A stretch of DNA of 20,000 bases from an uncultured virus (IMG/VR IMGVR_UViG_3300026430_000073). Taxonomy: Duplodnaviria; Heunggongvirae; Uroviricota; Caudoviricetes. The notes below the pieces were generated by a model that saw nothing but the letters and a program-made list of their open reading frames with translations, had not been told where the DNA came from and did no database searches. The translations under genes were made by a program, and so were the position numbers. Of this stretch, positions 2,356 to 20,000 are shown piece by piece. The stretch spans positions 54,031 through 74,030 of the IMG/VR virus record IMGVR_UViG_3300026430_000073; one strand, given 5' to 3'. Each line of letters begins with the position of its first letter. Position 1 is the stretch's first letter.

Positions 2356-2688
2356 GTGTTCAGGATTCTGTCCGTAGCGTGTTTCTCGATCTTGATCACA
2401 GGTTGTGCTCCCAAGGTCAAAGAGGTCATCGTAGAGCGTACCGTCACCAAGTACGCTGTCATCGACGATCGGTGGTTGAAAGACTGTCCGGTACTCTCTC
2501 CGGCAGAACCTGATGAATACCGTCAGATGTCTCTCCAGGAGCAGGTGGACTTCTGGAGCGGTCTGTACATCAAACAGATCGGTCTGGTGGGTGCGTGCAA
2601 CATCCGCTTGGATAATACGCGCAACTACAACGCCCTCAAGAAAGATGAGGTCAACATCCTCACCTGTAAGGAAGGCGTTTGCAAATGA
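2356..2688 (+). CDS. Putative outer-membrane lipoprotein spanin (Rz1-like o-spanin)
   Basis: Signal peptide II with lipobox ILITG|C17; +2 residue is Ala (not Asp), consistent with OM sorting; LKDCP motif and further Cys; follows the i-spanin candidate. Confidence 0.75.
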   Translation: MFRILSVACFSILITGCAPKVKEVIVERTVTKYAVIDDRWLKDCPVLSPAEPDEYRQMSLQEQVDFWSGLYIKQIGLVGACNIRLDNTRNYNALKKDEVNILTCKEGVCK

Positions 2689-2722
2689 CATATAGGCCGG
2701 GTAATCCCCGGCCTATATGCTG
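2689..2722 (+). terminator. Stem-loop after the spanin genes (CATATAGGCCGGG-TAATC-CCCGGCCTATATG, ending in TATGCTG)
   Basis: Perfect 13-bp inverted repeat directly after the stop codon; no long U-tract. Confidence 0.7.
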
Positions 2723-10741: not shown

Positions 10742-10769
10742 GGGGCGGGAAACCGCCCCACTTATGCCG
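10742..10769 (+). terminator. Stem-loop GGGGCGG-GAAA-CCGCCCC followed by TATGCCG
   Basis: Perfect stem; 20 nt identical to 4077-4096. Confidence 0.7.
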
Positions 10770-10779
10770 GAGCTTTATA

Positions 10780-12093
10780 ATGCATATTCAGATCGAAACC
10801 TACGATGCTGTCTCCATCAACTTCCGCCAGCTGAGCCCAGTTCCAAAGCTGGTCGCTTATCCGATTCTCACTCCAGGTATGCGTTGTCATATCCAACGTG
10901 ACGAACTGATCGACGACGCTCTGTCGATCTCATTGCGCGACGGGCGGGAAGTCACCATCCCGGGCGGCAACGATCAACCGCGCTACGCGTTCACCCTGAC
11001 CATGGAGAGCAATGTCGGTGGTCCAGGGTTCGGTAAGCAGACTGCTGTCGTTACGGGCTTCACTGAAGACGCCAGTGTCGTCAGCATGGGTGGGTTGGTC
11101 GATCACGATGCCAAGCTGTACTTCGACCGCGTGACTACCTATCGTCAGCTCAACACACCGCATGGTCCTCTCGTGCAGACGATCACTGATGACCACGTCG
11201 TCCCGCCGACTCATCGCATCGATGAGAGACTCTACAGCCTTCGTCCGGGCGACCTCATCAACCGTACGATCTCCGAGGCGGTGTTAGGAGCACACACTCG
11301 GATAGGTAGCCCTGCACTCAACCTGACTGGCGTTCCGACTACGGTGCGACTGGTGCCGGTACTCACCGAGTCTTCGAGAGAATGGCTGGACGAGATCCTG
11401 CGGGCATACGACGGTGTTGCGAAAGAGTTCGACCTCGACGCAGCTCCTCATGATACCTTGGAGCAGATGAGTTACGCGACGGAAACTCGACCACTCAGTC
11501 ACGTCATGTTCCTCGACAGGCTCAGTCGCGATACGCAGTTCGCTTCGGACGGTTACGTTACGTTCGGTGAGTTGGTCAGGATTTTCAGTGGCATCCCAAC
11601 CACCTTCGGGCCGGAGATCATCGTGAAGTCGTTCGATGAAACTATCGAAGCTTCGGATCCGGAATATCGACACATCCTCAACCGCATCTACCGCGCGACT
11701 CTGTCGACGATGTCCGAACTCAACCTCGACACGCTCAACGTCGTGTATAACGGCGCGACTTTCATCCCGCATTTCACCACCTTGATGGATACCATCGGCG
11801 TCCCTTACGGTGATGAGATCGCACAGAAGGTCATGGAGCGTCTCATGGAAGAGATGCGTAACGCAATCTGCGAGTTCGCCGAATACATCACTGGCGTATC
11901 GGTGAACTGTACTCGACATGGGGTGATGAATGTCCACCTGATCGATCGCGGCCTGATGCCGACCATCAGCATTCCGATGTGTATGACCGGTCGTCTGACC
12001 AGTCAGTTGAGTGACGAAGATGTGCAGCACAATCTTTGCCGCTGGCTAACCCATCTGACCACCACTGATCAAGTCGATTCTGAGGAAGACTGA
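10780..12093 (+). CDS. Putative paralog of the phiKZ gp68-like non-virion RNA polymerase promoter-specificity subunit
   Basis: Motif series IPGG-x-QPRYAF, TGFTED, GLVDHDAKLYF, TPHG and YSLRPGDLI resembles the gp68-family pattern as recalled (IPNGW..R..F / GYTD / G.IDP.M.F / TP.G / MRP.D); not verified by search. Confidence 0.55.
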   Translation: MHIQIETYDAVSINFRQLSPVPKLVAYPILTPGMRCHIQRDELIDDALSISLRDGREVTIPGGNDQPRYAFTLTMESNVGGPGFGKQTAVVTGFTEDASVVSMGGLVDHDAKLYFDRVTTYRQLNTPHGPLVQTITDDHVVPPTHRIDERLYSLRPGDLINRTISEAVLGAHTRIGSPALNLTGVPTTVRLVPVLTESSREWLDEILRAYDGVAKEFDLDAAPHDTLEQMSYATETRPLSHVMFLDRLSRDTQFASDGYVTFGELVRIFSGIPTTFGPEIIVKSFDETIEASDPEYRHILNRIYRATLSTMSELNLDTLNVVYNGATFIPHFTTLMDTIGVPYGDEIAQKVMERLMEEMRNAICEFAEYITGVSVNCTRHGVMNVHLIDRGLMPTISIPMCMTGRLTSQLSDEDVQHNLCRWLTHLTTTDQVDSEED

Positions 12094-12419
12094 TGAAATC
12101 TCCGCTTGAAGAACTCATGTGGGACGCTTACCGAGCAGAGTCTGCGGCTGCGCTTGTTCACGGCTTCCGAGGTAAGATCGCAGACGTCGGCGATAACATC
12201 ACCGAAATCATCGACACGCCAGAAGAAGTGAACATTTATAATGCTGGCGCGAGTCATGGTGTCGCCTGGTTGCTCAACCAACTGGATGATGCTGGTTATG
12301 TGCTGACTGACCGCTTTGGCCGTAAGGTAACCAAGGACCGATTTCCGTCCTTCAAAGCGGCGTGGACAGCATGGTTCCGAAAGAGTTCGCACCCACCGAC
12401 TCTTAGCGTGATCAAGTAA
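12093..12419 (+). CDS. Hypothetical phage protein
   Basis: TGATG overlap with the upstream ORF; GAGGA SD. Confidence 0.7.
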   Translation: MKSPLEELMWDAYRAESAAALVHGFRGKIADVGDNITEIIDTPEEVNIYNAGASHGVAWLLNQLDDAGYVLTDRFGRKVTKDRFPSFKAAWTAWFRKSSHPPTLSVIK

Positions 12420-12426
12420 GACTAAA

Positions 12427-12466
12427 CACATCAGGGCCGCAAGGCCCTGGTGTGCTTTCTTTTTTT
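12427..12466 (+). terminator. Rho-independent terminator (CACATCAGGGCC-GCAA-GGCCCTGGTGTG + T-tract)
   Basis: 12-bp stem with one G-U pair, GNRA loop, T run. Confidence 0.85.
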
Positions 12467-12523
12467 GTATAGGGGGTGTTCGTTAAAACTTATCGTATGG
12501 TCAAGTATATTGAGAGTAGGATC

Positions 12524-12940
12524 ATGGCGACTATAACACCTGAGCTTAAAGCGCTCGTGGACAAAGCCTTGAAGGATCCATTCTTAGGCCCTGCCGCACT
12601 TAAGAACCACATGGAAAATATCGAACCCTTGTACTTCGAGGGGAAGGTCGTGGGATTCTCTGTACCATTCCAAGAGCCGGACGGCTACTGGCGGACAGGC
12701 TCTATTTACATCCTCCCCGAATATCGGGGTAAAGGTGTGGCAGCAGACTTCATTCGCGCATTTCGTCAAGGTAAGCGCATGAGAGCCTGGATCGAACCGA
12801 AGAATGCTTCAAGCATCCGCGCATACAAAGCCGCAGGGTTCCTCCCTACAGCTAAACGTGCATACGCAAATGCCAAGCCTTTCGACGAATACACTGTCGA
12901 GGCTAATGCATCGGAGAGGAGTAAGATGTTCAACTGGTGA
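12524..12940 (+). CDS. GNAT-family N-acetyltransferase (likely start ATG 12524)
   Basis: Acetyl-CoA motif A IYILPEYRGKGVA and motif B NASSIRAYKAAGF; AGGA SD. Confidence 0.85.
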   Translation: MATITPELKALVDKALKDPFLGPAALKNHMENIEPLYFEGKVVGFSVPFQEPDGYWRTGSIYILPEYRGKGVAADFIRAFRQGKRMRAWIEPKNASSIRAYKAAGFLPTAKRAYANAKPFDEYTVEANASERSKMFNW

Positions 12941-12960
12941 CATGTGATGTATTATATGTT

Positions 12961-13230
12961 AGACTGAATTATTTCGGGCGAATGGATTCAGTTTAATCCA
13001 ACGGTGTGCACACTCCCATCGTTGGATCACCGTGGTCGGGAGTCCTCTCCGACCTTAGGCTACGACGGTCGCGGGTCCGTCGGAGTCTAGCTAGTGCCTA
13101 GAGTGCACAGCCTGCAGAGTTCAGCGTCGTGAGGACAAGCCGAACTCTGTGGGGTGACCACTCAGCCCCAAGTGTGAACCAACATAGATCCCCACCACCG
13201 GTCGCTCCGCCGGTGGTGGGGTATATGCCG
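12961..13230 (+). ncRNA. Candidate structured ncRNA locus 1 (at least 6 tandem hairpins plus a terminal 12-bp stem)
   Basis: Stems 12961-69/12986-94, 12996-13006/13017-27, 13034-39/13049-54, 13064-68/13077-81, 13114-25/13139-50, 13151-57/13162-69 and 13190-201/13210-21; G-U pairs favour the + strand; preceded by GTATTATAT. Confidence 0.6.
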
Positions 13231-13243
13231 CATTTAACTATTT

Positions 13244-13256
13244 TTCAGTCACACAT
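13244..13256 (+). promoter_or_regulatory. Phage promoter-like motif TTCAGTCACACAT (copy 3)
   Basis: Repeated intergenic motif; see 2733 and 3521. Confidence 0.7.
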
Positions 13257-13296
13257 TGTCGCGATGAACAATCTCAATGACCGAGGAGGTCGCGCA

Positions 13297-13635
13297 ATGA
13301 ACTTTGGTAATATCGTCCGTATCGCTGCTCTGGGTGCAATCGTTGGTGGTCTGGGTTACGCAGCCTACAAGTCCATCAAAGCTACAAAGGAAAGCGAAGA
13401 CAGAACTCTCGCCAAGATGAAAGTCACTTCGATCATTGTGGATCTTCAGATGATCAGCCTGTTCGTCAACCTGAATGGCAGCGGTTTGCTGAGCGATGTC
13501 CAGGTAGATTTCCTTGCTAAGCTGACTGTCCAGAGCACCACGGGCGAACTCGACAAATTGTCGCCTACCGAACTGGAGAGCATCCAGGATCAGCTGAAGG
13601 TCATCAAACTTATCGTCATGCCTAATGTAGGCTAG
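13297..13635 (+). CDS. Small N-terminally membrane-anchored protein (true start likely ATG 13297)
   Basis: SD GAGGAGGT; TM IVRIAALGAIVGGLGYAAY; similar to the next ORF. Confidence 0.75.
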   Translation: MNFGNIVRIAALGAIVGGLGYAAYKSIKATKESEDRTLAKMKVTSIIVDLQMISLFVNLNGSGLLSDVQVDFLAKLTVQSTTGELDKLSPTELESIQDQLKVIKLIVMPNVG

Positions 13636-13644
13636 GAGGTAACC

Positions 13645-13950
13645 GTGAACGCAGCAAAGTTAGTAGCCGCTCTGATAGCAGCTGGCGTGATCACTGGTGG
13701 AGGTTACGCAGCTTACCAGCGATACAAACCAACTCCTCGGACCGAGGCGGATAAGAAGAAGATCGATGAGGAGATCGAGTTTCTTCACAAGAAGATCCTG
13801 GAGAAGATCGCAGATATCGAGCGCAAGCTCACTGCGGCAGAAGCGTGGCTCATGCAGACAATCATCTCGCATGACTACAAAGGTGATCGCGATCGGGTCC
13901 TCAAGGAGATCCGTGATCTGTACAACAAAGTCTACGAGGTAGTTACGTGA
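13645..13950 (+). CDS. Small N-terminally membrane-anchored protein, probable paralog of 13297..13635
   Basis: SD AGGAGGT; TM LVAALIAAGVITGGGYAAY. Confidence 0.75.
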   Translation: MNAAKLVAALIAAGVITGGGYAAYQRYKPTPRTEADKKKIDEEIEFLHKKILEKIADIERKLTAAEAWLMQTIISHDYKGDRDRVLKEIRDLYNKVYEVVT

Positions 13951-14270
13951 CACAGCCGTACATCAAGCACAGTCAGGATCACTACGGGGATGAGGACGGC
14001 ACTGTCGTCCACCTCTTCGTAGATACGATCCACGGTAAGGAGCGACTCATCTGGGAAGCTGCTGACCCAAGTAAGCACAAGGACGACATGATCTATATCC
14101 GCCACTATCTACCCGATGGTGAGATCAGTCACTACGTGCAGCTTTCGAAGATGGAGGAGTTGATCGCCTACAGAGATTTCTGTCGGCAGAACTCGGTCCC
14201 GTATTCCGAGATCAAGAACCTCTCCTACATCAAGAAAGCAATCACATCCTTCAGACGTCGCAAAGACTGA
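13947..14270 (+). CDS. Hypothetical phage protein
   Basis: GTGA overlap, GAGGT SD, followed by a terminator. Confidence 0.7.
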   Translation: MTQPYIKHSQDHYGDEDGTVVHLFVDTIHGKERLIWEAADPSKHKDDMIYIRHYLPDGEISHYVQLSKMEELIAYRDFCRQNSVPYSEIKNLSYIKKAITSFRRRKD

Positions 14271-14276
14271 CAGCAT

Positions 14277-14319
14277 ACAGCCCGGCGAAAGCCGGGCTGT
14301 GCTACTTTCTTTTTTTTTT
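14277..14319 (+). terminator. Rho-independent terminator (ACAGCCCGGC-GAAA-GCCGGGCTGT + T-tract)
   Basis: Perfect 10-bp stem, GNRA loop, long T run. Confidence 0.9.
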
Positions 14320-14355
14320 GCGTGAATACTTACGGATGATGTCAATATACTATGT

Positions 14356-14626
14356 AGAGAATGCCCTCACAAGTTGTTCTCTGAGCTCTTTCACAATTTA
14401 GATCTTGAACTCACAGTAAGGACGTCCGTTTCGTCCAGCTCCCTGAGGAATGGAACCCCAATGGCGGCAACGCCACCCCTTAGCGTTCTTCCTGAGGCTG
14501 AACGCGCCTATCAATGCTTGTAGCTGAAACCTATCGGGCGGTTCGCTGCCTCTAGCCGGATGCGCATGTACAACGACGGGCAACATGAAGATCAAGATGC
14601 CCGGCTTCGGCCGGGTCTTTATGCCG
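14356..14626 (+). ncRNA. Candidate structured ncRNA locus 2 (multi-branch fold plus terminal UUCG hairpin)
   Basis: Stems 14356-63/14375-82, 14420-24/14432-36, 14462-66/14471-75 (GCAA loop), 14483-88/14500-05, 14537-41/14546-50 (TTCG loop), 14565-69/14583-87; long-range pair 14402-08/14592-98; terminal stem 14599-14616; no credible ORF. Confidence 0.6.
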
Positions 14627-14677
14627 TTCGTATACATTTAACAATGACGGCTATGTAATGAATAAACGGAGGTCGTC

Positions 14678-15073
14678 ATGGAACTGGAAGCATTTCTGCT
14701 GGACTGTGTGCGGCATCAAATACCTCGAGACTTACTTCGACTCCTTGGCGACGAATACGTCCTCATCTTAAAGGTTGAGGGTTATCTCAATGAGGTCCGT
14801 AAGATGACCTGCCATGATGTCCCTAACAAGCTGTGGCGTGACGCTGCCCGGTACGTGGCGCACCTCGTCAAACACGAGGTCTACTGTGTCGTCCTCGAAG
14901 CTAAGCGTGACGACAAGCAGGTCGGAGCCCTACGACCTGGTCTCAGGGAGGTAGCGTTTGAATACAATGATTGTCATGACGTAGCGCTCGGCGCTGCGGC
15001 GGGCATCATGAACAAATGGTCATACATCAAAAGAGAGATCGCAGCCAATGGAAAAGCTCGAAGTCATCGTTAA
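14678..15073 (+). CDS. Hypothetical phage protein
   Basis: SD GGAGGT; 131 aa. Confidence 0.7.
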   Translation: MELEAFLLDCVRHQIPRDLLRLLGDEYVLILKVEGYLNEVRKMTCHDVPNKLWRDAARYVAHLVKHEVYCVVLEAKRDDKQVGALRPGLREVAFEYNDCHDVALGAAAGIMNKWSYIKREIAANGKARSHR

Positions 15074-15755
15074 AGGTTCGACCGGCGTCGGTAAAAGTCA
15101 CGTCATGGCAATCATCGAGCGTGCTCTGATGCAGGAGTACGGTCACGAGGTTAAGATCACCAGCGAGGATCTGCGTGCAGAGCGCAACCTCGTTGGCGAG
15201 GATATCCGTAACTGGACTAGCCTTGATGGCAGTAAAGTCGAGATCGTCATCAAGGAACAGAACGTACCACGCCGCGTGGACACGAGCTTAGCGATCACTG
15301 CGTTACAGTTCGACTCGAGCATGGATCACCTCAAAGCCAATCGTGATGTCATTAACGCCCTGCTGCGTATGCAGGTAGTCTCGGTTGGTGGTGAGGATAC
15401 TGGCGGAAGTATCAGCGTAGTGTTTAACGACACCGACACTGCCGATCGTGATGCGATACGGCAAGCCCTCTACGGCATCAACCAAGTCGTACTTGATAGC
15501 ACTCGTGATCTCGATTACCATTACGTGCTATATCGTACCGATATCGACGGCAAGGTGATCCAAGCCACCCTGCTGCCGGTGCCGCTTATCGAAGTCCGTA
15601 TCTTCGCCGGCATGATCCAACTGACCTTCAACTGTAAATCCCAGTCCGGTGGACCGATCCTCAAAGAGTTCTGCCAGCGCATCAACGCGGCTACTAAGTT
15701 AGGTAACGTCATCAAGATGACCAACGAGTACATGGTGCGAACTATCCGTGAATAA
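15048..15755 (+). CDS. Hypothetical phage protein with N-terminal P-loop (GSTGVGKS)
   Basis: Walker A at aa 10-17 after a hydrophobic strand; no clear Walker B. Confidence 0.7.
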   Translation: MEKLEVIVKGSTGVGKSHVMAIIERALMQEYGHEVKITSEDLRAERNLVGEDIRNWTSLDGSKVEIVIKEQNVPRRVDTSLAITALQFDSSMDHLKANRDVINALLRMQVVSVGGEDTGGSISVVFNDTDTADRDAIRQALYGINQVVLDSTRDLDYHYVLYRTDIDGKVIQATLLPVPLIEVRIFAGMIQLTFNCKSQSGGPILKEFCQRINAATKLGNVIKMTNEYMVRTIRE

Positions 15756-15777
15756 TTACGAAACATGAAAGTATTAT

Positions 15778-16126
15778 ATCAGAGGACCAGCCGCGCATCC
15801 CGGACTCCCTCGCTGGCCGCCTGACTGTCTAAGGCAGCTGGTCCTCTGATCGTCTTATCACTGATGATCGCAAGACGTTAAACATGGCGTGAAACACTCT
15901 TGTGTTTGATATGCCTTAGGGCATCTCCAATAACCTCACCCTGGACTATTGGAGTATATGAGAGACTCTCTGACCCCTGGCCGGTGATTAGAGTTTCGAA
16001 GGGTACGGGGGACTCGTTAAGCACGCCAACGCTTCAAGGAGTACTCAAGTTGTTGCACGATGTTCGCGCTTGGCAGTTAATCGAAAAGTGCCTCACAAGT
16101 ATGGCTGAACCGTCCGAGACAGTACC
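15778..16126 (+). ncRNA. Candidate structured ncRNA locus 3 (14-bp perfect stem, hairpin series, hammerhead-like core); possibly truncated by the junction
   Basis: ATCAGAGGACCAGC 15778-91 / GCTGGTCCTCTGAT 15837-50; further stems ATGCC/GGCAT, CTCCAATA/TATTGGAG, GAGACTCT/AGAGTTTC, GGTAC/GTACC; preceded by GTATTATAT like locus 1. Confidence 0.55.
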
Positions 16127-17762
16127 AAATGATGAGTATGACGAGTTGGAGTTTAGATCAGACTCTGGCATAAAAAAGAATCTGGCATCAGACGAATTTG
16201 TGTTGTTGTCCTGCATTGTATACAAATACAACAAGAGACTTAAAAGACAGGAGAGAAGCTTGCTGATCACAAACAAGGCTATTTATAATATCAATAAACA
16301 GGAGTTTTTTGCAAACATAATTTCAGTGTTCAACTCAAGCTACGCGATTAGAAGAAGGATTGATATTGTAAATGTCGCATGCATCACGGTTAGTGAGCTC
16401 AGCTCCGAGTTTGTGATCCACGTGAGAGACGAATATGACTACAGATATGGGTCACCAGATAAAAGAGATCGAATTCTCTCTATGATTTGCAAAGCTTACT
16501 GCTTGAATGTCCGAAATAAACCCCTTCCCTTCTTTTTCAAGGATGATGTGAATTTGATCGATTACACAACAACTGAAGATGATAAGAAGAAAGGAGTCAT
16601 AAGAATGCCTAAAGATGGAGCAGCACTGATGGATGAAGTATCTCTCTACAAAAAAATCCAAGAGAACGCCAAAAAAAGAGAAAAGATGAAGGCAAATACC
16701 CAAGTCGTCTTTACAAAGAATCTGTCTGAAAACAGGGCAACCCTGGAAGACTTTGAAATTTTAAAAGTTCTTGGTAGAGGTGCATTCGGAAAAGTTATGT
16801 TGGTTCAAAAGAAAGATACAAAGCAAGTGTTTGCATTAAAATCAATGCACAAGGAAGAAATTATTGACAAGGATCAAATTGAGCACACGAAAACCGAGAG
16901 ATATGTCTTGGAAAAAAGCAAATGTCCATTCCTGGTCAGTTTAGAATACGCTTTCCAGACACCTGATAAAGTGTTTTTCGTTATGAAATTCATGAAGGGC
17001 GGAGAATTGTTCCAACATCTTCGAATTTCGAAAAGATTTGATGAAGAAAGAGCAAAGTTTTATGTGGCTGAGATTTTATTGGGCTTGGAATACCTTCATG
17101 AGCTTGGTGTGATTTATAGAGATTTAAAACCTGAGAATATTTTAATGGACGAAGATGGTCATCTTGTCATTACTGACTTTGGTATGGCAAAACAATTAAA
17201 AGATGGAGAATTGACTCATTCTTTTGTGGGAACTCCTGAATATCTCTCACCAGAGATGGTTAGAGGAGAAGGACATTCTCAGCCAGCAGATTGGTGGGCT
17301 CTCGGGATTTTAGCTTTTGAAATGTTGACAGGATTACCACCATTTTATAACAGAGAACAAAATACTCAGAAGGTGTTTAATGCTATCAGAGAGAAAGAAA
17401 TTGTATTCCCTGCTAAGGTGAATATCTCTGCTGATGGAAAAGATTTTATTACTAAATTATTGAAAAAGAAGCCAGAAGAGAGATTAGGTTTTAAGGGAGC
17501 ACAAGAGATTAAAGCTCATAAATGGTTTAGCAATGTGAACTGGAACCTTTTGGGTGAAAAGAAAGTCACACCACCTTTTAAACCAAAGGTTACTGGAGAT
17601 TATGATGTTGAGAATTTCGATTCTGAATTCACAAAAGAAGAGGCTTACAATTCTGTGAGACATAATGCAAACATGAAACTTGTCAACAAATATCAAAAAG
17701 AATTCAAAGACTTTACTTATGTTCCAGGAAAAGGAATGTTGAATGAAGGAAAACAGCATTAA
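16101..17762 (+). CDS. Eukaryotic AGC-family Ser/Thr protein kinase (SGK/AKT/S6K-like) with an N-terminal myosin TH1/PH-like domain; 5' end uncertain because of the junction
   Basis: GRGAFGKV, ALK, YRDLKPEN, DFG, GTPEYLSPE and DWWALG; AGC C-tail PPFKP...NFDSEFT and hydrophobic motif FKDFTY; N-terminal K..QERSLLITNKAIYN resembles TH1/PH; AT-rich codons. Confidence 0.93.
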   Translation: MAEPSETVPNDEYDELEFRSDSGIKKNLASDEFVLLSCIVYKYNKRLKRQERSLLITNKAIYNINKQEFFANIISVFNSSYAIRRRIDIVNVACITVSELSSEFVIHVRDEYDYRYGSPDKRDRILSMICKAYCLNVRNKPLPFFFKDDVNLIDYTTTEDDKKKGVIRMPKDGAALMDEVSLYKKIQENAKKREKMKANTQVVFTKNLSENRATLEDFEILKVLGRGAFGKVMLVQKKDTKQVFALKSMHKEEIIDKDQIEHTKTERYVLEKSKCPFLVSLEYAFQTPDKVFFVMKFMKGGELFQHLRISKRFDEERAKFYVAEILLGLEYLHELGVIYRDLKPENILMDEDGHLVITDFGMAKQLKDGELTHSFVGTPEYLSPEMVRGEGHSQPADWWALGILAFEMLTGLPPFYNREQNTQKVFNAIREKEIVFPAKVNISADGKDFITKLLKKKPEERLGFKGAQEIKAHKWFSNVNWNLLGEKKVTPPFKPKVTGDYDVENFDSEFTKEEAYNSVRHNANMKLVNKYQKEFKDFTYVPGKGMLNEGKQH

Positions 17763-17944
17763 TATTTTAAAGATTTATTTATTTATTTTGTTTGCTTTAA
17801 GTTGAGTTGGTGATTTTAATAAGATATCAGATTACATAATGATGATTTATATATACATACTTTGAATCTGATAAAATCATTGTTACTTAATGATAATATA
17901 CATACTTATAATTATTATGATTGTTCAATTTGGTTACAAGAAAA

Positions 17945-19972
17945 TTATTGAAGATTGTAAGCAGGTGGGGGTGGGAGAAAATCTGGATTCCCAGTTGTGA
18001 CATAATTAATATACCTTTCAAGATTCTTCTTACTCTCATCTTGTCTGAGATAATTTGGTAAAACGAAAGCATAGAAAGTGCTGATTCTATTTTTGGTTTT
18101 CCCGATGCGAGAAATTAAACGAAGATTTTCTTTTTCTTGGCTTTTAACAAGTGTAAAAAGAGCTAAGATTGCAACGATTGAAAATATTGTCATGAAGCCA
18201 TTAAACCAAATAAACAAAAGAACTCCGATCTCACTGCTCAGGATAGTTGAAATATAGACGATCAAGTTTAACAATGCAGAAATAATTCCCACAATAATTG
18301 CTGCAGCTGTTTGTCCAACAATTCTTTTAATGACAGCTTCATCACTTTTGATGACTTGTTGATGGTGTCGAATATATTCGGGATCATCCATTAATCTCTT
18401 TATATAGAGTTCACTGAGAGAGCTCGATTCATGAAGAGTTTTATCGTTGTCTGCAAATTTCTGAAAGACTGTCTTTTTCTTGAGTCTTTCAATGCCTCTT
18501 TTTAACTCGATTTTTTCTTCTTCTTCTGTGATAGAGGCCTGGATTTGTCTTTCATGATCTTCTTCTTCATCAGGGACATCCCATACAAATCCTTCAGTAT
18601 CAGTGATAATGATAGAAGCATCAACATCCAATTCTTCATCAAGTTGCTTTTTGACGACGGGTTTAAAATAGTATTGATCCCGACTGACTATGTCCCTGAT
18701 TTTCTTTTCTCTGAGGAAATCAGCTCCACTTCCATGGAATGTGACGGCTCTTGTGAGTTTGGGTTCAAAGAGAACAGGCTCTCTGAACTCAAGATCCTGC
18801 CTGACTTTTTGGATTTTTCGAATTTGTTTTTCAGTTTGAAGGATATCCTCATGGTCTTGAAATACAAATCCGTGTTTATTTTCTTCTTCGAGGTCTTGAA
18901 TTTTTTGGTCCATCTCGGCTTGAAGAGACTCTTCAAGGATGATTGGTTGGGAGATTTTTTTGAAATGGATATGCTTAGACTTTGGAGGACAAGAACGAAG
19001 CTTTTGAAACATTGGCTGCTCAGAAGGAAGATCCTCAATGAGATCGCTTGGCTCCTCAATTGGAGATCGATTTCCGGCAGTGCTCTTGGCTCTCTTTTTA
19101 ACCGCTGTAACGACATTGCTTAATGATGACCTTGAGCTTGAGGAATTATAGTTGCTATCTTGATTCATTTTTAATTGATTCAAGGTTGGTGCTGCTGATG
19201 CCATCATTTTATCAGGATTTGGGCTTAAGGCAGTGAAAGCTTTTTCCTGAGCTTTAATACATTTATAAAGATGATAACCATAAAATGTGAGGCCGAGGAT
19301 GAAGAAAGCGTTTATGATAAATATGAGGACGCTGAGGATCAGATTCGGGTATCGAAAGTCGTCGTTTCTGAATCCTTTAGTTACGCTAACAAATGTCTGA
19401 GCCACCATAATAAAGACAACACCAACGAGAATGAGCGGTTTGATTGCCCTCGATTGATACTTTTTTTGACTGGGATCTCGAATTGTAAGCTCTAAATAGA
19501 TTGTATACCAAACTCCAAAGACAACGGCATAGATCATACTCATGAAAGTATATGAGACTTCAAACAAGAATCGTTCCACAGACGGGTTGAATACATTGTC
19601 ATAGTCGAAAGGGTCGATGGCAAGCCAGAGAATTTGAGTCATACAGATTAAGATGATTATGCGCATGAGCAAGTTCAAGGGAGACCACATCGTAATAAAG
19701 AAGATATATCTTTTCTTTTTACCAAAGTTTCTGCTTTCTTTGCGGATTTTCATAGCAAGTCTGAATATCACAAAAGCAGCAAGAAAGGAATAAATAATCA
19801 GGAAAGTGACTCGAAAACTATAGAAACCCCCAGGCCATTCTTTCGCTAGATTAGTCAGACAGTGATCACCAAACCATCCTTCATCGCATTGGCAATAAGA
19901 TTCATCAACGCAAAAACCTTTATCATTGCAATCACTCTGTGTCGTGCATGCATTGTTGCCATCATCTGACAT
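17945..19972 (-). CDS. Eukaryotic EGF-like-domain, 7-transmembrane (GPCR-like / TOM1-like) protein with a long third cytoplasmic loop
   Basis: N-terminal CNDKGFC..CQCDEGWFGDHC; five TM helices, a ~310-aa hydrophilic loop, two more TM helices; C-terminal PPAY; intronless, AT-rich. Confidence 0.8.
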   Translation of the reverse strand: MSDDGNNACTTQSDCNDKGFCVDESYCQCDEGWFGDHCLTNLAKEWPGGFYSFRVTFLIIYSFLAAFVIFRLAMKIRKESRNFGKKKRYIFFITMWSPLNLLMRIIILICMTQILWLAIDPFDYDNVFNPSVERFLFEVSYTFMSMIYAVVFGVWYTIYLELTIRDPSQKKYQSRAIKPLILVGVVFIMVAQTFVSVTKGFRNDDFRYPNLILSVLIFIINAFFILGLTFYGYHLYKCIKAQEKAFTALSPNPDKMMASAAPTLNQLKMNQDSNYNSSSSRSSLSNVVTAVKKRAKSTAGNRSPIEEPSDLIEDLPSEQPMFQKLRSCPPKSKHIHFKKISQPIILEESLQAEMDQKIQDLEEENKHGFVFQDHEDILQTEKQIRKIQKVRQDLEFREPVLFEPKLTRAVTFHGSGADFLREKKIRDIVSRDQYYFKPVVKKQLDEELDVDASIIITDTEGFVWDVPDEEEDHERQIQASITEEEEKIELKRGIERLKKKTVFQKFADNDKTLHESSSLSELYIKRLMDDPEYIRHHQQVIKSDEAVIKRIVGQTAAAIIVGIISALLNLIVYISTILSSEIGVLLFIWFNGFMTIFSIVAILALFTLVKSQEKENLRLISRIGKTKNRISTFYAFVLPNYLRQDESKKNLERYINYVTTGNPDFLPPPPAYNLQ

Positions 19973-20000
19973 TTTCTTTTGGTTTGAAACAAGAGTTTAA

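Follow-up and report, generated by a model that had tools for sequence, protein, structure and literature searches.

Three candidate structured non-coding RNAs between the genes of a phiKZ-like jumbo phage from soil

The stretch of DNA considered here is the terminal 20 kb of a 74,030-bp viral contig in IMG/VR (IMGVR_UViG_3300026430_000073), which is rated about 30% complete. These 20,000 nucleotides (nt) are called the window below, and positions refer to the window unless another contig is named. Three gaps free of open reading frames (ORFs) stand out in it, at 12941-13296 (356 nt), 14271-14677 (407 nt) and from 15756 onwards; no credible gene was found inside them, and the remaining gaps between the chosen ORFs of the window are 91 nt or less. 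In a first-pass annotation, these gaps had been taken as three hairpin-packed loci of similar length, which would encode a set of phage regulatory or decoy RNAs. The gaps are real, except that the third one measures 744 nt when intact, as seen in two other copies of the phage (contigs L004 and L010). They have a common layout, in which an AT-rich head ending in TATG (TATC in gap 3) is followed by a non-coding stretch, a GC hairpin, the heptamer TATGCCG and then genes. The non-coding stretches, denoted R1, R2 and R3, are the subject of this report.

The same phage is present as a 248,338-bp metagenome contig (L010), and tblastn places its large helicase at 36-42% identity to those of phiKZ-like jumbo phages (pPa_SNUABM_DT01, LucasX, Noxifer and the Ea35-70 group). 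Therefore, the phage part of the window comes from an uncultured phiKZ-like jumbo phage of soil, as the first-pass annotation had supposed for a jumbo phage in general. The window as a whole is a chimera. The contigs L003, L004 and L010 match it at 99.98-100% up to position 16083; beyond that point they agree mutually and differ from the window, and therefore locus 3 is truncated there. After 16083, the GC content is about 0.37, compared with about 0.5 before, an intron-free ORF from 16103 (ATG) to 17762 encodes an AGC-type kinase of eukaryotic type with the domains Myosin_TH1, Pkinase and Pkinase_C, and a 675-residue EGF-domain ORF lies on the minus strand at 17945-19972. Positions 16084-20000 are foreign, eukaryote-like sequence joined by mis-assembly. 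The joint sets the phage plus strand immediately ahead of the short 5' leader of the messenger RNA (mRNA) for the kinase, in sense orientation, and looks like a complementary DNA (cDNA) chimera. The public viral record is thus part phage and part eukaryotic transcript, which is relevant to its annotators. The chimera also bears on two short motifs that had been reported as shared between loci: both are present, with their second copies (CCTCACAAGT at 16091 and GGCTGAAC at 16103) lying in the 5' leader and start codon region of the foreign kinase mRNA. Because one shared 10-mer is expected about 0.3 times among three 350-nt stretches, the sharing is a coincidence.

All three elements are read on the plus strand. 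R1 (12958..13223) is about 265 nt long and forms six hairpins, the last of which is a closing GC hairpin at 13190-13221. R2 (14354..14619), also about 265 nt long, is predicted to fold into a hairpin at its 5' end, a central domain that a long-range helix closes, a further hairpin whose loop is GCAA (GAAA in the relative introduced below) and a closing UUCG hairpin at 14599-14616. Of R3, the 5' 304 nt are in the window (15780..16083), and the intact element has about 660 nt (L004 5380-6038). Folding energies were compared with those of dinucleotide shuffles as z-scores. R1 has a z-score of -6.4, and a separate strand comparison gives -7.1/-7.3 for the plus strand and -5.8/-4.0 for the minus strand. 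R3 reaches only -1.6 when truncated as in the window, versus -4.3/-4.4 for its own full-length sequence and -6.1/-7.6 for that of the relative. The plus strand folds better than the minus strand in all four comparisons made for R1 and R3. Consequently, the loci had rightly been called almost fully foldable as far as locus 1 and the full-length locus 3 are concerned; locus 2 is another matter, which is taken up below.

The relative is L011, a syntenic 39-kb metagenome contig with which a stretch of 9 kb is shared. Protein-guided scans for relatives led to this one useful relative plus the same phage, and an exact 20-mer of R1 was found in IMG/VR in the same phage only; the comparison of structure and covariation rests on two lineages. 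R1 and R2 are 94.1% and 87.0% identical to their counterparts in L011, and the 5' part, middle and 3' part of R3 are 90.1%, 62.6% and 76.5% identical, respectively. For the neighbouring genes, the overall identity is 54-89%, and that of third codon positions is 41-76%. In R1, about 160 consecutive bases are identical, beginning at the promoter-like motif. The mismatches are spread over the three codon phases (8/4/4 in R1, 19/11/11 in R2 and 51/50/50 in R3) with no codon periodicity, 15 of the 17 insertions and deletions are not multiples of three, and the Pfam and PHROGs matches all lie outside the three gaps.

The differences between the two lineages also respect the folds. The RNAalifold structure of R1 has 93 pairs with three double changes, three one-sided changes and none broken, that of R2 has 74 pairs with five double, five one-sided and none broken, and in that of R3 38 of 174 pairs vary, 23 by double and 15 by one-sided changes, again with none broken. 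The differences in R1 fall mostly in one hairpin, where the stem CAGAGTTC/GAACTCTG becomes CAGGAATC/GATTCTTG by three double changes around an unchanged loop, and its one-sided changes turn G-C into G-U on the plus strand. Such structures are fitted to both sequences, which has to be set against the counts; therefore, the count was repeated with the minimum-energy structure predicted from the window phage alone and tested in L011, with slid partners as the comparison. In R1, 7 of 8 variable pairs are kept with 3 double changes, versus 1-2 of 9-13 with 0-1 double for the slid partners. The corresponding figures are 11 of 20 with 4 double (slid, 2-4 of 23-24 with none) in R2, and 35 of 73 with 18 double (slid, 9-16 of 78-89 with 1-3 double) in R3. 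As far as sequence comparison can show it, the three gaps are non-coding and under purifying selection, their helices are kept by compensatory changes, and the plus strand is the folding strand. For two lineages, this is good evidence of functional RNA, not conclusive evidence. That the elements are dedicated non-coding RNAs of the jumbo phage is supported by conservation and compensatory change for all three, and by folding energy as well for R1 and R3.

Each element is preceded on the plus strand by an AT-rich, promoter-like head. The head of R1 (12941..12957) carries TATTATAT at 12950-12957 and TATG at 12955-12958, which ends on base 1 of R1; that of R2 (14338..14353) carries TATACTAT at 14346-14353 and TATG at 14351-14354, which ends on base 1 of R2; and that of R3 (15756..15779) carries TATTATAT at 15772-15779, followed by C instead of G. 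A TAT-rich motif does occur at each gap, as had been noticed. The pattern TAWWNTAT+AGA has three matches in the 64.8-kb contig, one at each of the three loci and all on the plus strand, compared with none on the reverse strand and none for a control pattern. The motif and complementarity scans covered about 129 kb of the phage (contigs G000 and G001), where the pattern occurs at these three places only; a looser regular expression gives 10 matches, among which only the three loci show this context. When the heads are aligned with those of L011, the bases 5' of TATG vary and near-perfect identity begins at TATG; in the head of R1, only the last bases (TATG) are retained in L011. The first helix begins one base after the motif, that is at base 2 of the element, in R1, R2 and R3. 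Since TATG lies at the onset of conservation and the first helix starts one base on, the motif, the conservation and the helix would together fit transcription starts at 12958, 14354 and 15780.

In the parts of the literature consulted, the phiKZ late promoter is given as 5'-TATG-3' with G as +1 (PMC4666361, PMC7598289), any change in which strongly lowers transcription (PMC4666361), and the early promoters of jumbo phages, served by the virion RNA polymerase, are described as a conserved AT-rich stretch some 10 nt long whose centre lies near -10 and which recurs before early operons (PMC7598289). The heads found here are AT-rich as well, but occur in three copies in about 129 kb, all at R1-R3. 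They appear to combine a trait of early promoters (AT-richness) with the late consensus (TATG). In common with the phiKZ late promoter, the heads of R1 and R2 carry TATG, which ends exactly at the onset of the conservation and of the first helix in both elements; the differences are that R3 has TATC, that the starts are read from the sequence, and that the motif before genes is extended to TATGCCG and usually has a GC hairpin before it. As for other promoter classes, sigma-70 matches are at chance level (4 versus 3.7 expected). Directly 5' of an acetyltransferase gene with a short leader only, positions 12483-12515 hold a motif similar to that heading R2, ACTTATCGTATGGTCAAGTATATT, whose score is also that of a sigma-70-like site (TTAAAA-17-TATATT). 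Another promoter-like motif that recurs, TAATGTATCACTG, was seen at three sites on the minus strand of G001 (merged coordinates 90784, 92551 and 106604), with a related TTGACA...TATAAT-like site on the minus strand of G000 at 45713; this motif may represent a further promoter class of the phage.

The 3' ends of the elements share a module with many genes of the phage. Loci 1 and 2 end, as described in the first-pass annotation, in a GC hairpin plus TATGCCG (13190-13230 and 14599-14626), and so does the intact locus 3. The plus-strand heptamer at 13224-13230 has its putative +1 at G 13227 and is followed by a 70-nt leader to 13296, which is 87% identical to L011; the one at 14620-14626 has its putative +1 at G 14623 and a 55-nt leader to 14677, which is 94.5% identical; and the one after intact R3 (L004 6041-6047, plus strand) has a GC hairpin before it and 56 nt to the gene, which encodes a virion structural protein (L004 6100-6624; PHROGs 1037 and 2935). 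This ending is not special to the three loci, being a genome-wide signal before genes. TATGCCG has 21 sites in the scanned 129 kb, 14 of which show a stable GC hairpin ending 0-4 nt upstream; folds as stable occur at 5 of the 19 sites where a control word stands and in 24.5% of random 40-mers. At 11 of these 14 hairpin-linked sites, an ORF of at least 50 codons starts within 120 nt downstream on the same strand; the usual distance to the gene start is about 7-81 nt, for example at 10763, 13224 and 14620. Because phiKZ late promoters consist of TATG with G as +1, we read hairpin plus TATGCCG as the probable late-promoter module in common use by this phage, with a hairpin that is likely, in addition, to halt transcription coming from upstream or to insulate against it. 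Several of these hairpins have a T run behind them when read on the opposite strand and may serve as terminators for opposing transcription, and at G000 5178/5204 a single hairpin bears the motif on both strands. A further ORF-free stretch of 318 nt, beyond the window at G000 48792-49109, ends in TATGCCG before a gene; its z-score is about -2 on either strand, an AT-rich head like those of R1-R3 is absent, and neither the R2 nor the R3 model matches it.

Some hints of expression come from public sequencing runs. Among the runs listed with this stretch, 21 of 24 are soil metatranscriptomes, which may all belong to one campaign. Four RNA runs were examined as contigs, which cannot show ends, strand or level. 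In three of them, the stretch is one unbroken contig that gives no local depth information. In the fourth, the phage contig breaks inside R3, and unitigs over at least 91 nt of it (L010 8987-9077, equivalent to window 16034-16124 and L004 5634-5724) have a depth of about 16,000-18,000, while the flanking 40-kb phage contigs have a mean depth of about 145. The deep segment has one-letter variants at depth 4-11 and one branch into AT-rich sequence that begins with an ATG frame. The window joint at 16083 falls in the same segment, L003 ends 129 nt beyond that joint, and three assemblies break or turn chimeric within about 180 nt of the segment. An origin of the 91-nt piece in a sequence shared with cellular RNA was considered and rejected, for two exact scans of pieces of the deep segment against 185,579 species genomes gave no match. 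In this one run, part of R3 may accumulate as a very abundant plus-strand RNA, which would breed chimeric reads and assembly breaks.

Known families do not account for the three gaps: identity as a tRNA, transfer-messenger RNA (tmRNA), CRISPR array or Rfam family was ruled out by the ARAGORN, repeat and Rfam searches. ARAGORN called neither tRNA nor tmRNA in the window or in L010, L011 and L004, and the repeat search returned three short repeat families and no array, with copies nearly all in coding sequence and one in R3, so that the reported lack of such signatures stands. A scan with the Rfam 15 covariance models, as the first-pass annotation had suggested, gave no family at E<=1 inside the loci, whether in the window or in L010 and L011 including full-length R3; the coverage of Rfam 15 includes group I/II introns, RNase P, tmRNA, 6S, GOLLD, ROOL, pRNA, CRISPR repeats and riboswitches. 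The single weak match in the window (2679-2722) lies outside the loci, and two sub-threshold matches in L010 and L011 both lie outside the RNAs. No match to the loci was obtained by blastn among 50,697 phage records. With covariance models built for R1-R3, searches of L011 and of the 74-kb and 64.8-kb contigs returned for each model its own locus only, with no cross-match between loci. It appears that R1, R2 and R3 are mutually unrelated and single-copy in the contigs searched. To call them one system would therefore be a conclusion from position alone; further such loci were detected neither by the three models in the 74-kb and 64.8-kb contigs nor by the heads in the scanned 129 kb. The models gave no match at six distant jumbo-phage loci that share a neighbour protein at 44-54% identity, or in the whole genomes of five of these phages, where a negative from near-single-sequence models is weak evidence; a screen of distant relatives for ORF-free gaps says little, since it missed the known loci of L011 as well.

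The proposed regulatory or decoy function found no direct support. Exact complementary 11- to 13-mers between the elements and the 129 kb of phage are not above shuffled controls beyond scatter (counts of 0/1/12 for R1, 1/5/21 for R2 and 3/12/46 for R3, versus shuffle means of 1.2/5.6/18.5, 0.8/3.2/18.4 and 3.3/9.2/40.8), and according to Pfam and PHROGs, the genes adjoining the loci include no nuclease, reverse transcriptase or recognisable RNA-binding gene. Over the three RNAs, CTCC occurs 10 times versus 3.6 expected, TCCC 7 versus 3.1 and GGAG 6 versus 3.6; the excess of CTCC and TCCC is modest and suggestive only, and is not used as evidence.

Based on the above, the reading we favour, to which we would give an even chance, is that the gaps act as genes, or as transcribed elements, and that each gives rise to a structured non-coding RNA of the phiKZ-like soil jumbo phage, the three RNAs being unrelated and single-copy. 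The phage's own RNA polymerase would start each RNA at the last base of the AT-rich TATG (TATC for R3), and the RNA would fold during synthesis, beginning with the 5'-terminal hairpin at base 2. It would end or be trimmed at the GC hairpin, and this closing hairpin would double as the upstream half of the hairpin plus TATGCCG module, from which the downstream genes would obtain a separate late transcript. Free-standing RNAs of about 265, 265 and 660 nt that resist nucleases would result; their sequence-invariant parts would bind protein or another RNA, with the peripheral helices free to vary. The earlier observation was thus largely right, apart from a locus 3 cut short by the chimera and motifs shared by chance. 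The interpretation built on it is partly supported, namely in that the loci are non-coding, conserved and structured plus-strand elements, each with its own promoter-like motif, which alternate with small gene cassettes.

Several results weigh against this reading. Folding no better than shuffles had been named in the first-pass annotation as a refuting result, and R1 and R3 come out of this test well; R2, with z-scores of -0.6 to -1.3, folds no better than shuffles and is rescued only by its conservation and compensatory changes. With two lineages only, the covariation carries little statistical weight. The block of GNAT gene and R1 is less diverged overall, the third codon positions of the GNAT gene being 76% identical, and part of the identity of R1 may come from recent exchange of this block. 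Given the strict need for TATG in phiKZ, the TATC in the head of R3 is unfavourable. The closing hairpins of R1-R3 have no T run, and no terminator was called at their ends; consequently, 3' ends of their own are putative, and transcription may run on into the genes. As to homologues, each of the three models scored none of five in other whole jumbo-phage genomes. Finally, the contigs of the RNA runs are silent on ends, strand and level, and the deep segment was seen in one of the four runs and lies within the least conserved part of R3.

The missing T runs are also what one would expect if the elements were long structured 5' leaders acting in cis, with transcription running from the AT-rich motif through the hairpin into the cassette and a second, leaderless transcript starting from TATGCCG. 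Such leaders might stabilise the mRNA, set the timing of expression through attenuation at the hairpin, or render the polymerase terminator-resistant. Each element does lie directly upstream of a gene cassette on the same strand, and the short leaders after TATGCCG are also conserved (87-94.5% at loci 1 and 2). Moreover, the parts of the literature consulted describe short RNAs of phiKZ and 201phi2-1 that arise from 5' untranslated regions by premature termination beside full-length transcripts (PMC10914365, PMC11512511). However, each cassette already has the standard hairpin plus TATGCCG, and a leader is therefore not needed for its expression; the three would-be leaders resemble one another neither in sequence nor in fold, their conservation exceeds that of the genes that they would serve, and their 265-660 nt far exceed the 71-250 nt of the phiKZ and 201phi2-1 RNAs. 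We regard this explanation as possible, if rather doubtful.

That the DNA itself is conserved, or was recently exchanged between phages, as a promoter/terminator block, a site of replication or packaging, or a segment that recombined, with an RNA fold that has no function, seems very unlikely to us. It would suit the long runs of 100% identity, which include both strands of helices, the unusual similarity of the adjoining GNAT gene (89% overall) and the fact that the minus strands of R1 and R3 also beat shuffles (z-scores of -3.1 to -5.8). It does not suit the way in which the differences preserve pairs, with 3, 4 and 18 double changes versus 0-5 in slid controls, the one-sided changes that yield G-U pairs on the plus strand only, or the recurrence of one pattern at all three loci despite the diverged genes between them. 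Hardly credible at all is the view that small protein genes were missed in the gaps or have decayed there. Mechanical ORFs can be drawn at 13006-13101 (31 residues), 14374-14523 (49 residues), 14398-14637 on the minus strand (79 residues) and L004 5500-5712 (70 residues), but by eye, no Shine-Dalgarno sequence like those of the real genes precedes them, the codon phases and frame-shifting indels speak against translation, and third codon positions of real genes are far less conserved than these stretches.

The cassettes between the elements consist of small genes on the plus strand. Cassette 1 has three (13297-13635, 13645-13950 and 13947-14270) with no family matches, whose third codon positions are 47-69% identical to L011. 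The first two of its proteins (13297-13950; 112 and 101 residues) have in common an N-terminal hydrophobic segment resembling a membrane helix, with a GG(L/G)GYAAY motif; these two small proteins 3' of R1 are likely paralogous membrane proteins. A plus-strand terminator-like hairpin with a long T run (14276..14320; L010 7229-7254 plus tail) ends cassette 1 and is 96% identical to L011; a terminator scan calls it canonical, together with another at 12427-12470. Cassette 2 (14678..15755) encodes a 131-residue protein and a 235-residue protein with a P-loop-like motif. Beyond R3, the virion structural protein gene on the plus strand is converged upon by another at L004 6675-7385 on the minus strand (PHROGs 1037 and 2935 for the pair), and both finish with a common C-terminal peptide, ...D(L)(D/G)GFDAEG.

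Outside the window, G000 26500-28050 holds a tRNA cluster, in which ARAGORN calls five genes (Ile, Tyr, Asn, Gln and one undetermined) and Rfam six tRNAs, together with several tRNA-like pieces below threshold and some weak YrlA-like matches. Some 280 nt that separate tRNAs (26940-27220) fall in no family, and the cluster is not matched by the R1-R3 models. Two ORFs of G000, assigned by eye only, look like a QueC-type 7-cyano-7-deazaguanine synthase with an SGGMDS motif (51385-52284) and a thymidylate-synthase-like protein with a long N-terminal extension (11631-13451), which hints at modified DNA bases.

A broader reading, which we consider improbable on present evidence, is that nucleus-forming soil jumbo phages carry large ornate late RNAs, one of them at about 100 times the level of other phage RNA, which act as RNA-protein or RNA-only assemblies in virion production or translation control; C-rich loops that capture ribosome-binding sites are one possibility, and multimerisation through loop-loop contacts is another. 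Nothing on large non-coding RNAs of nucleus-forming phages turned up in the literature sources consulted. The non-coding RNAs of phiKZ-like phages have been mapped only recently, and those described are short and have no known role. R1-R3 are longer, better conserved than the surrounding proteins and fixed in the transcription punctuation of the phage, which makes them concrete candidates for a role of structured RNAs in nucleus-building phages with their own RNA polymerases.

The closest known counterparts are the small RNAs of phiKZ and 201phi2-1. According to the sections of the source articles consulted, these have 71-250 nt and mapped ends and are located between a promoter of the phage and the gene that follows, for example the phiKZ RNAs upstream of PHIKZ221 and PHIKZ302 and sRNA005 of 201phi2-1; a conserved position among giant phages is described for some of them, and a function for none (PMC10914365, PMC11512511). 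As described there, they resemble R1-R3 in belonging to phiKZ-like jumbo phages, in being structured and in lying on the same strand between a promoter, here read from the motif, and the next gene. R1-R3 differ in their size of about 265-660 nt, their predicted ends, the second promoter-like module at their 3' side and a conservation above that of genes, as well as in finding no match by sequence among the 50,697 phage records or by model in the five jumbo-phage genomes. In a wider circle, the pRNA of phi29, which is also a structured RNA of a phage, forms multimers by loop-loop contacts; R1-R3 are likewise predicted to be phage-encoded folded RNAs, in another type of phage and with no Rfam match. 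GOLLD and ROOL are large structured RNAs with no known function that are often phage-borne. Both are in Rfam, no family of which was found at E<=1 inside the loci, and here no tRNA adjoins the elements, the tRNA cluster being about 40 kb away. In its size class (about 660 nt), its many helices and its phage-borne nature, R3 is similar to GOLLD and ROOL, and it would join a small number of very large structured RNAs apart from those of ribosomes, introns and RNase P.

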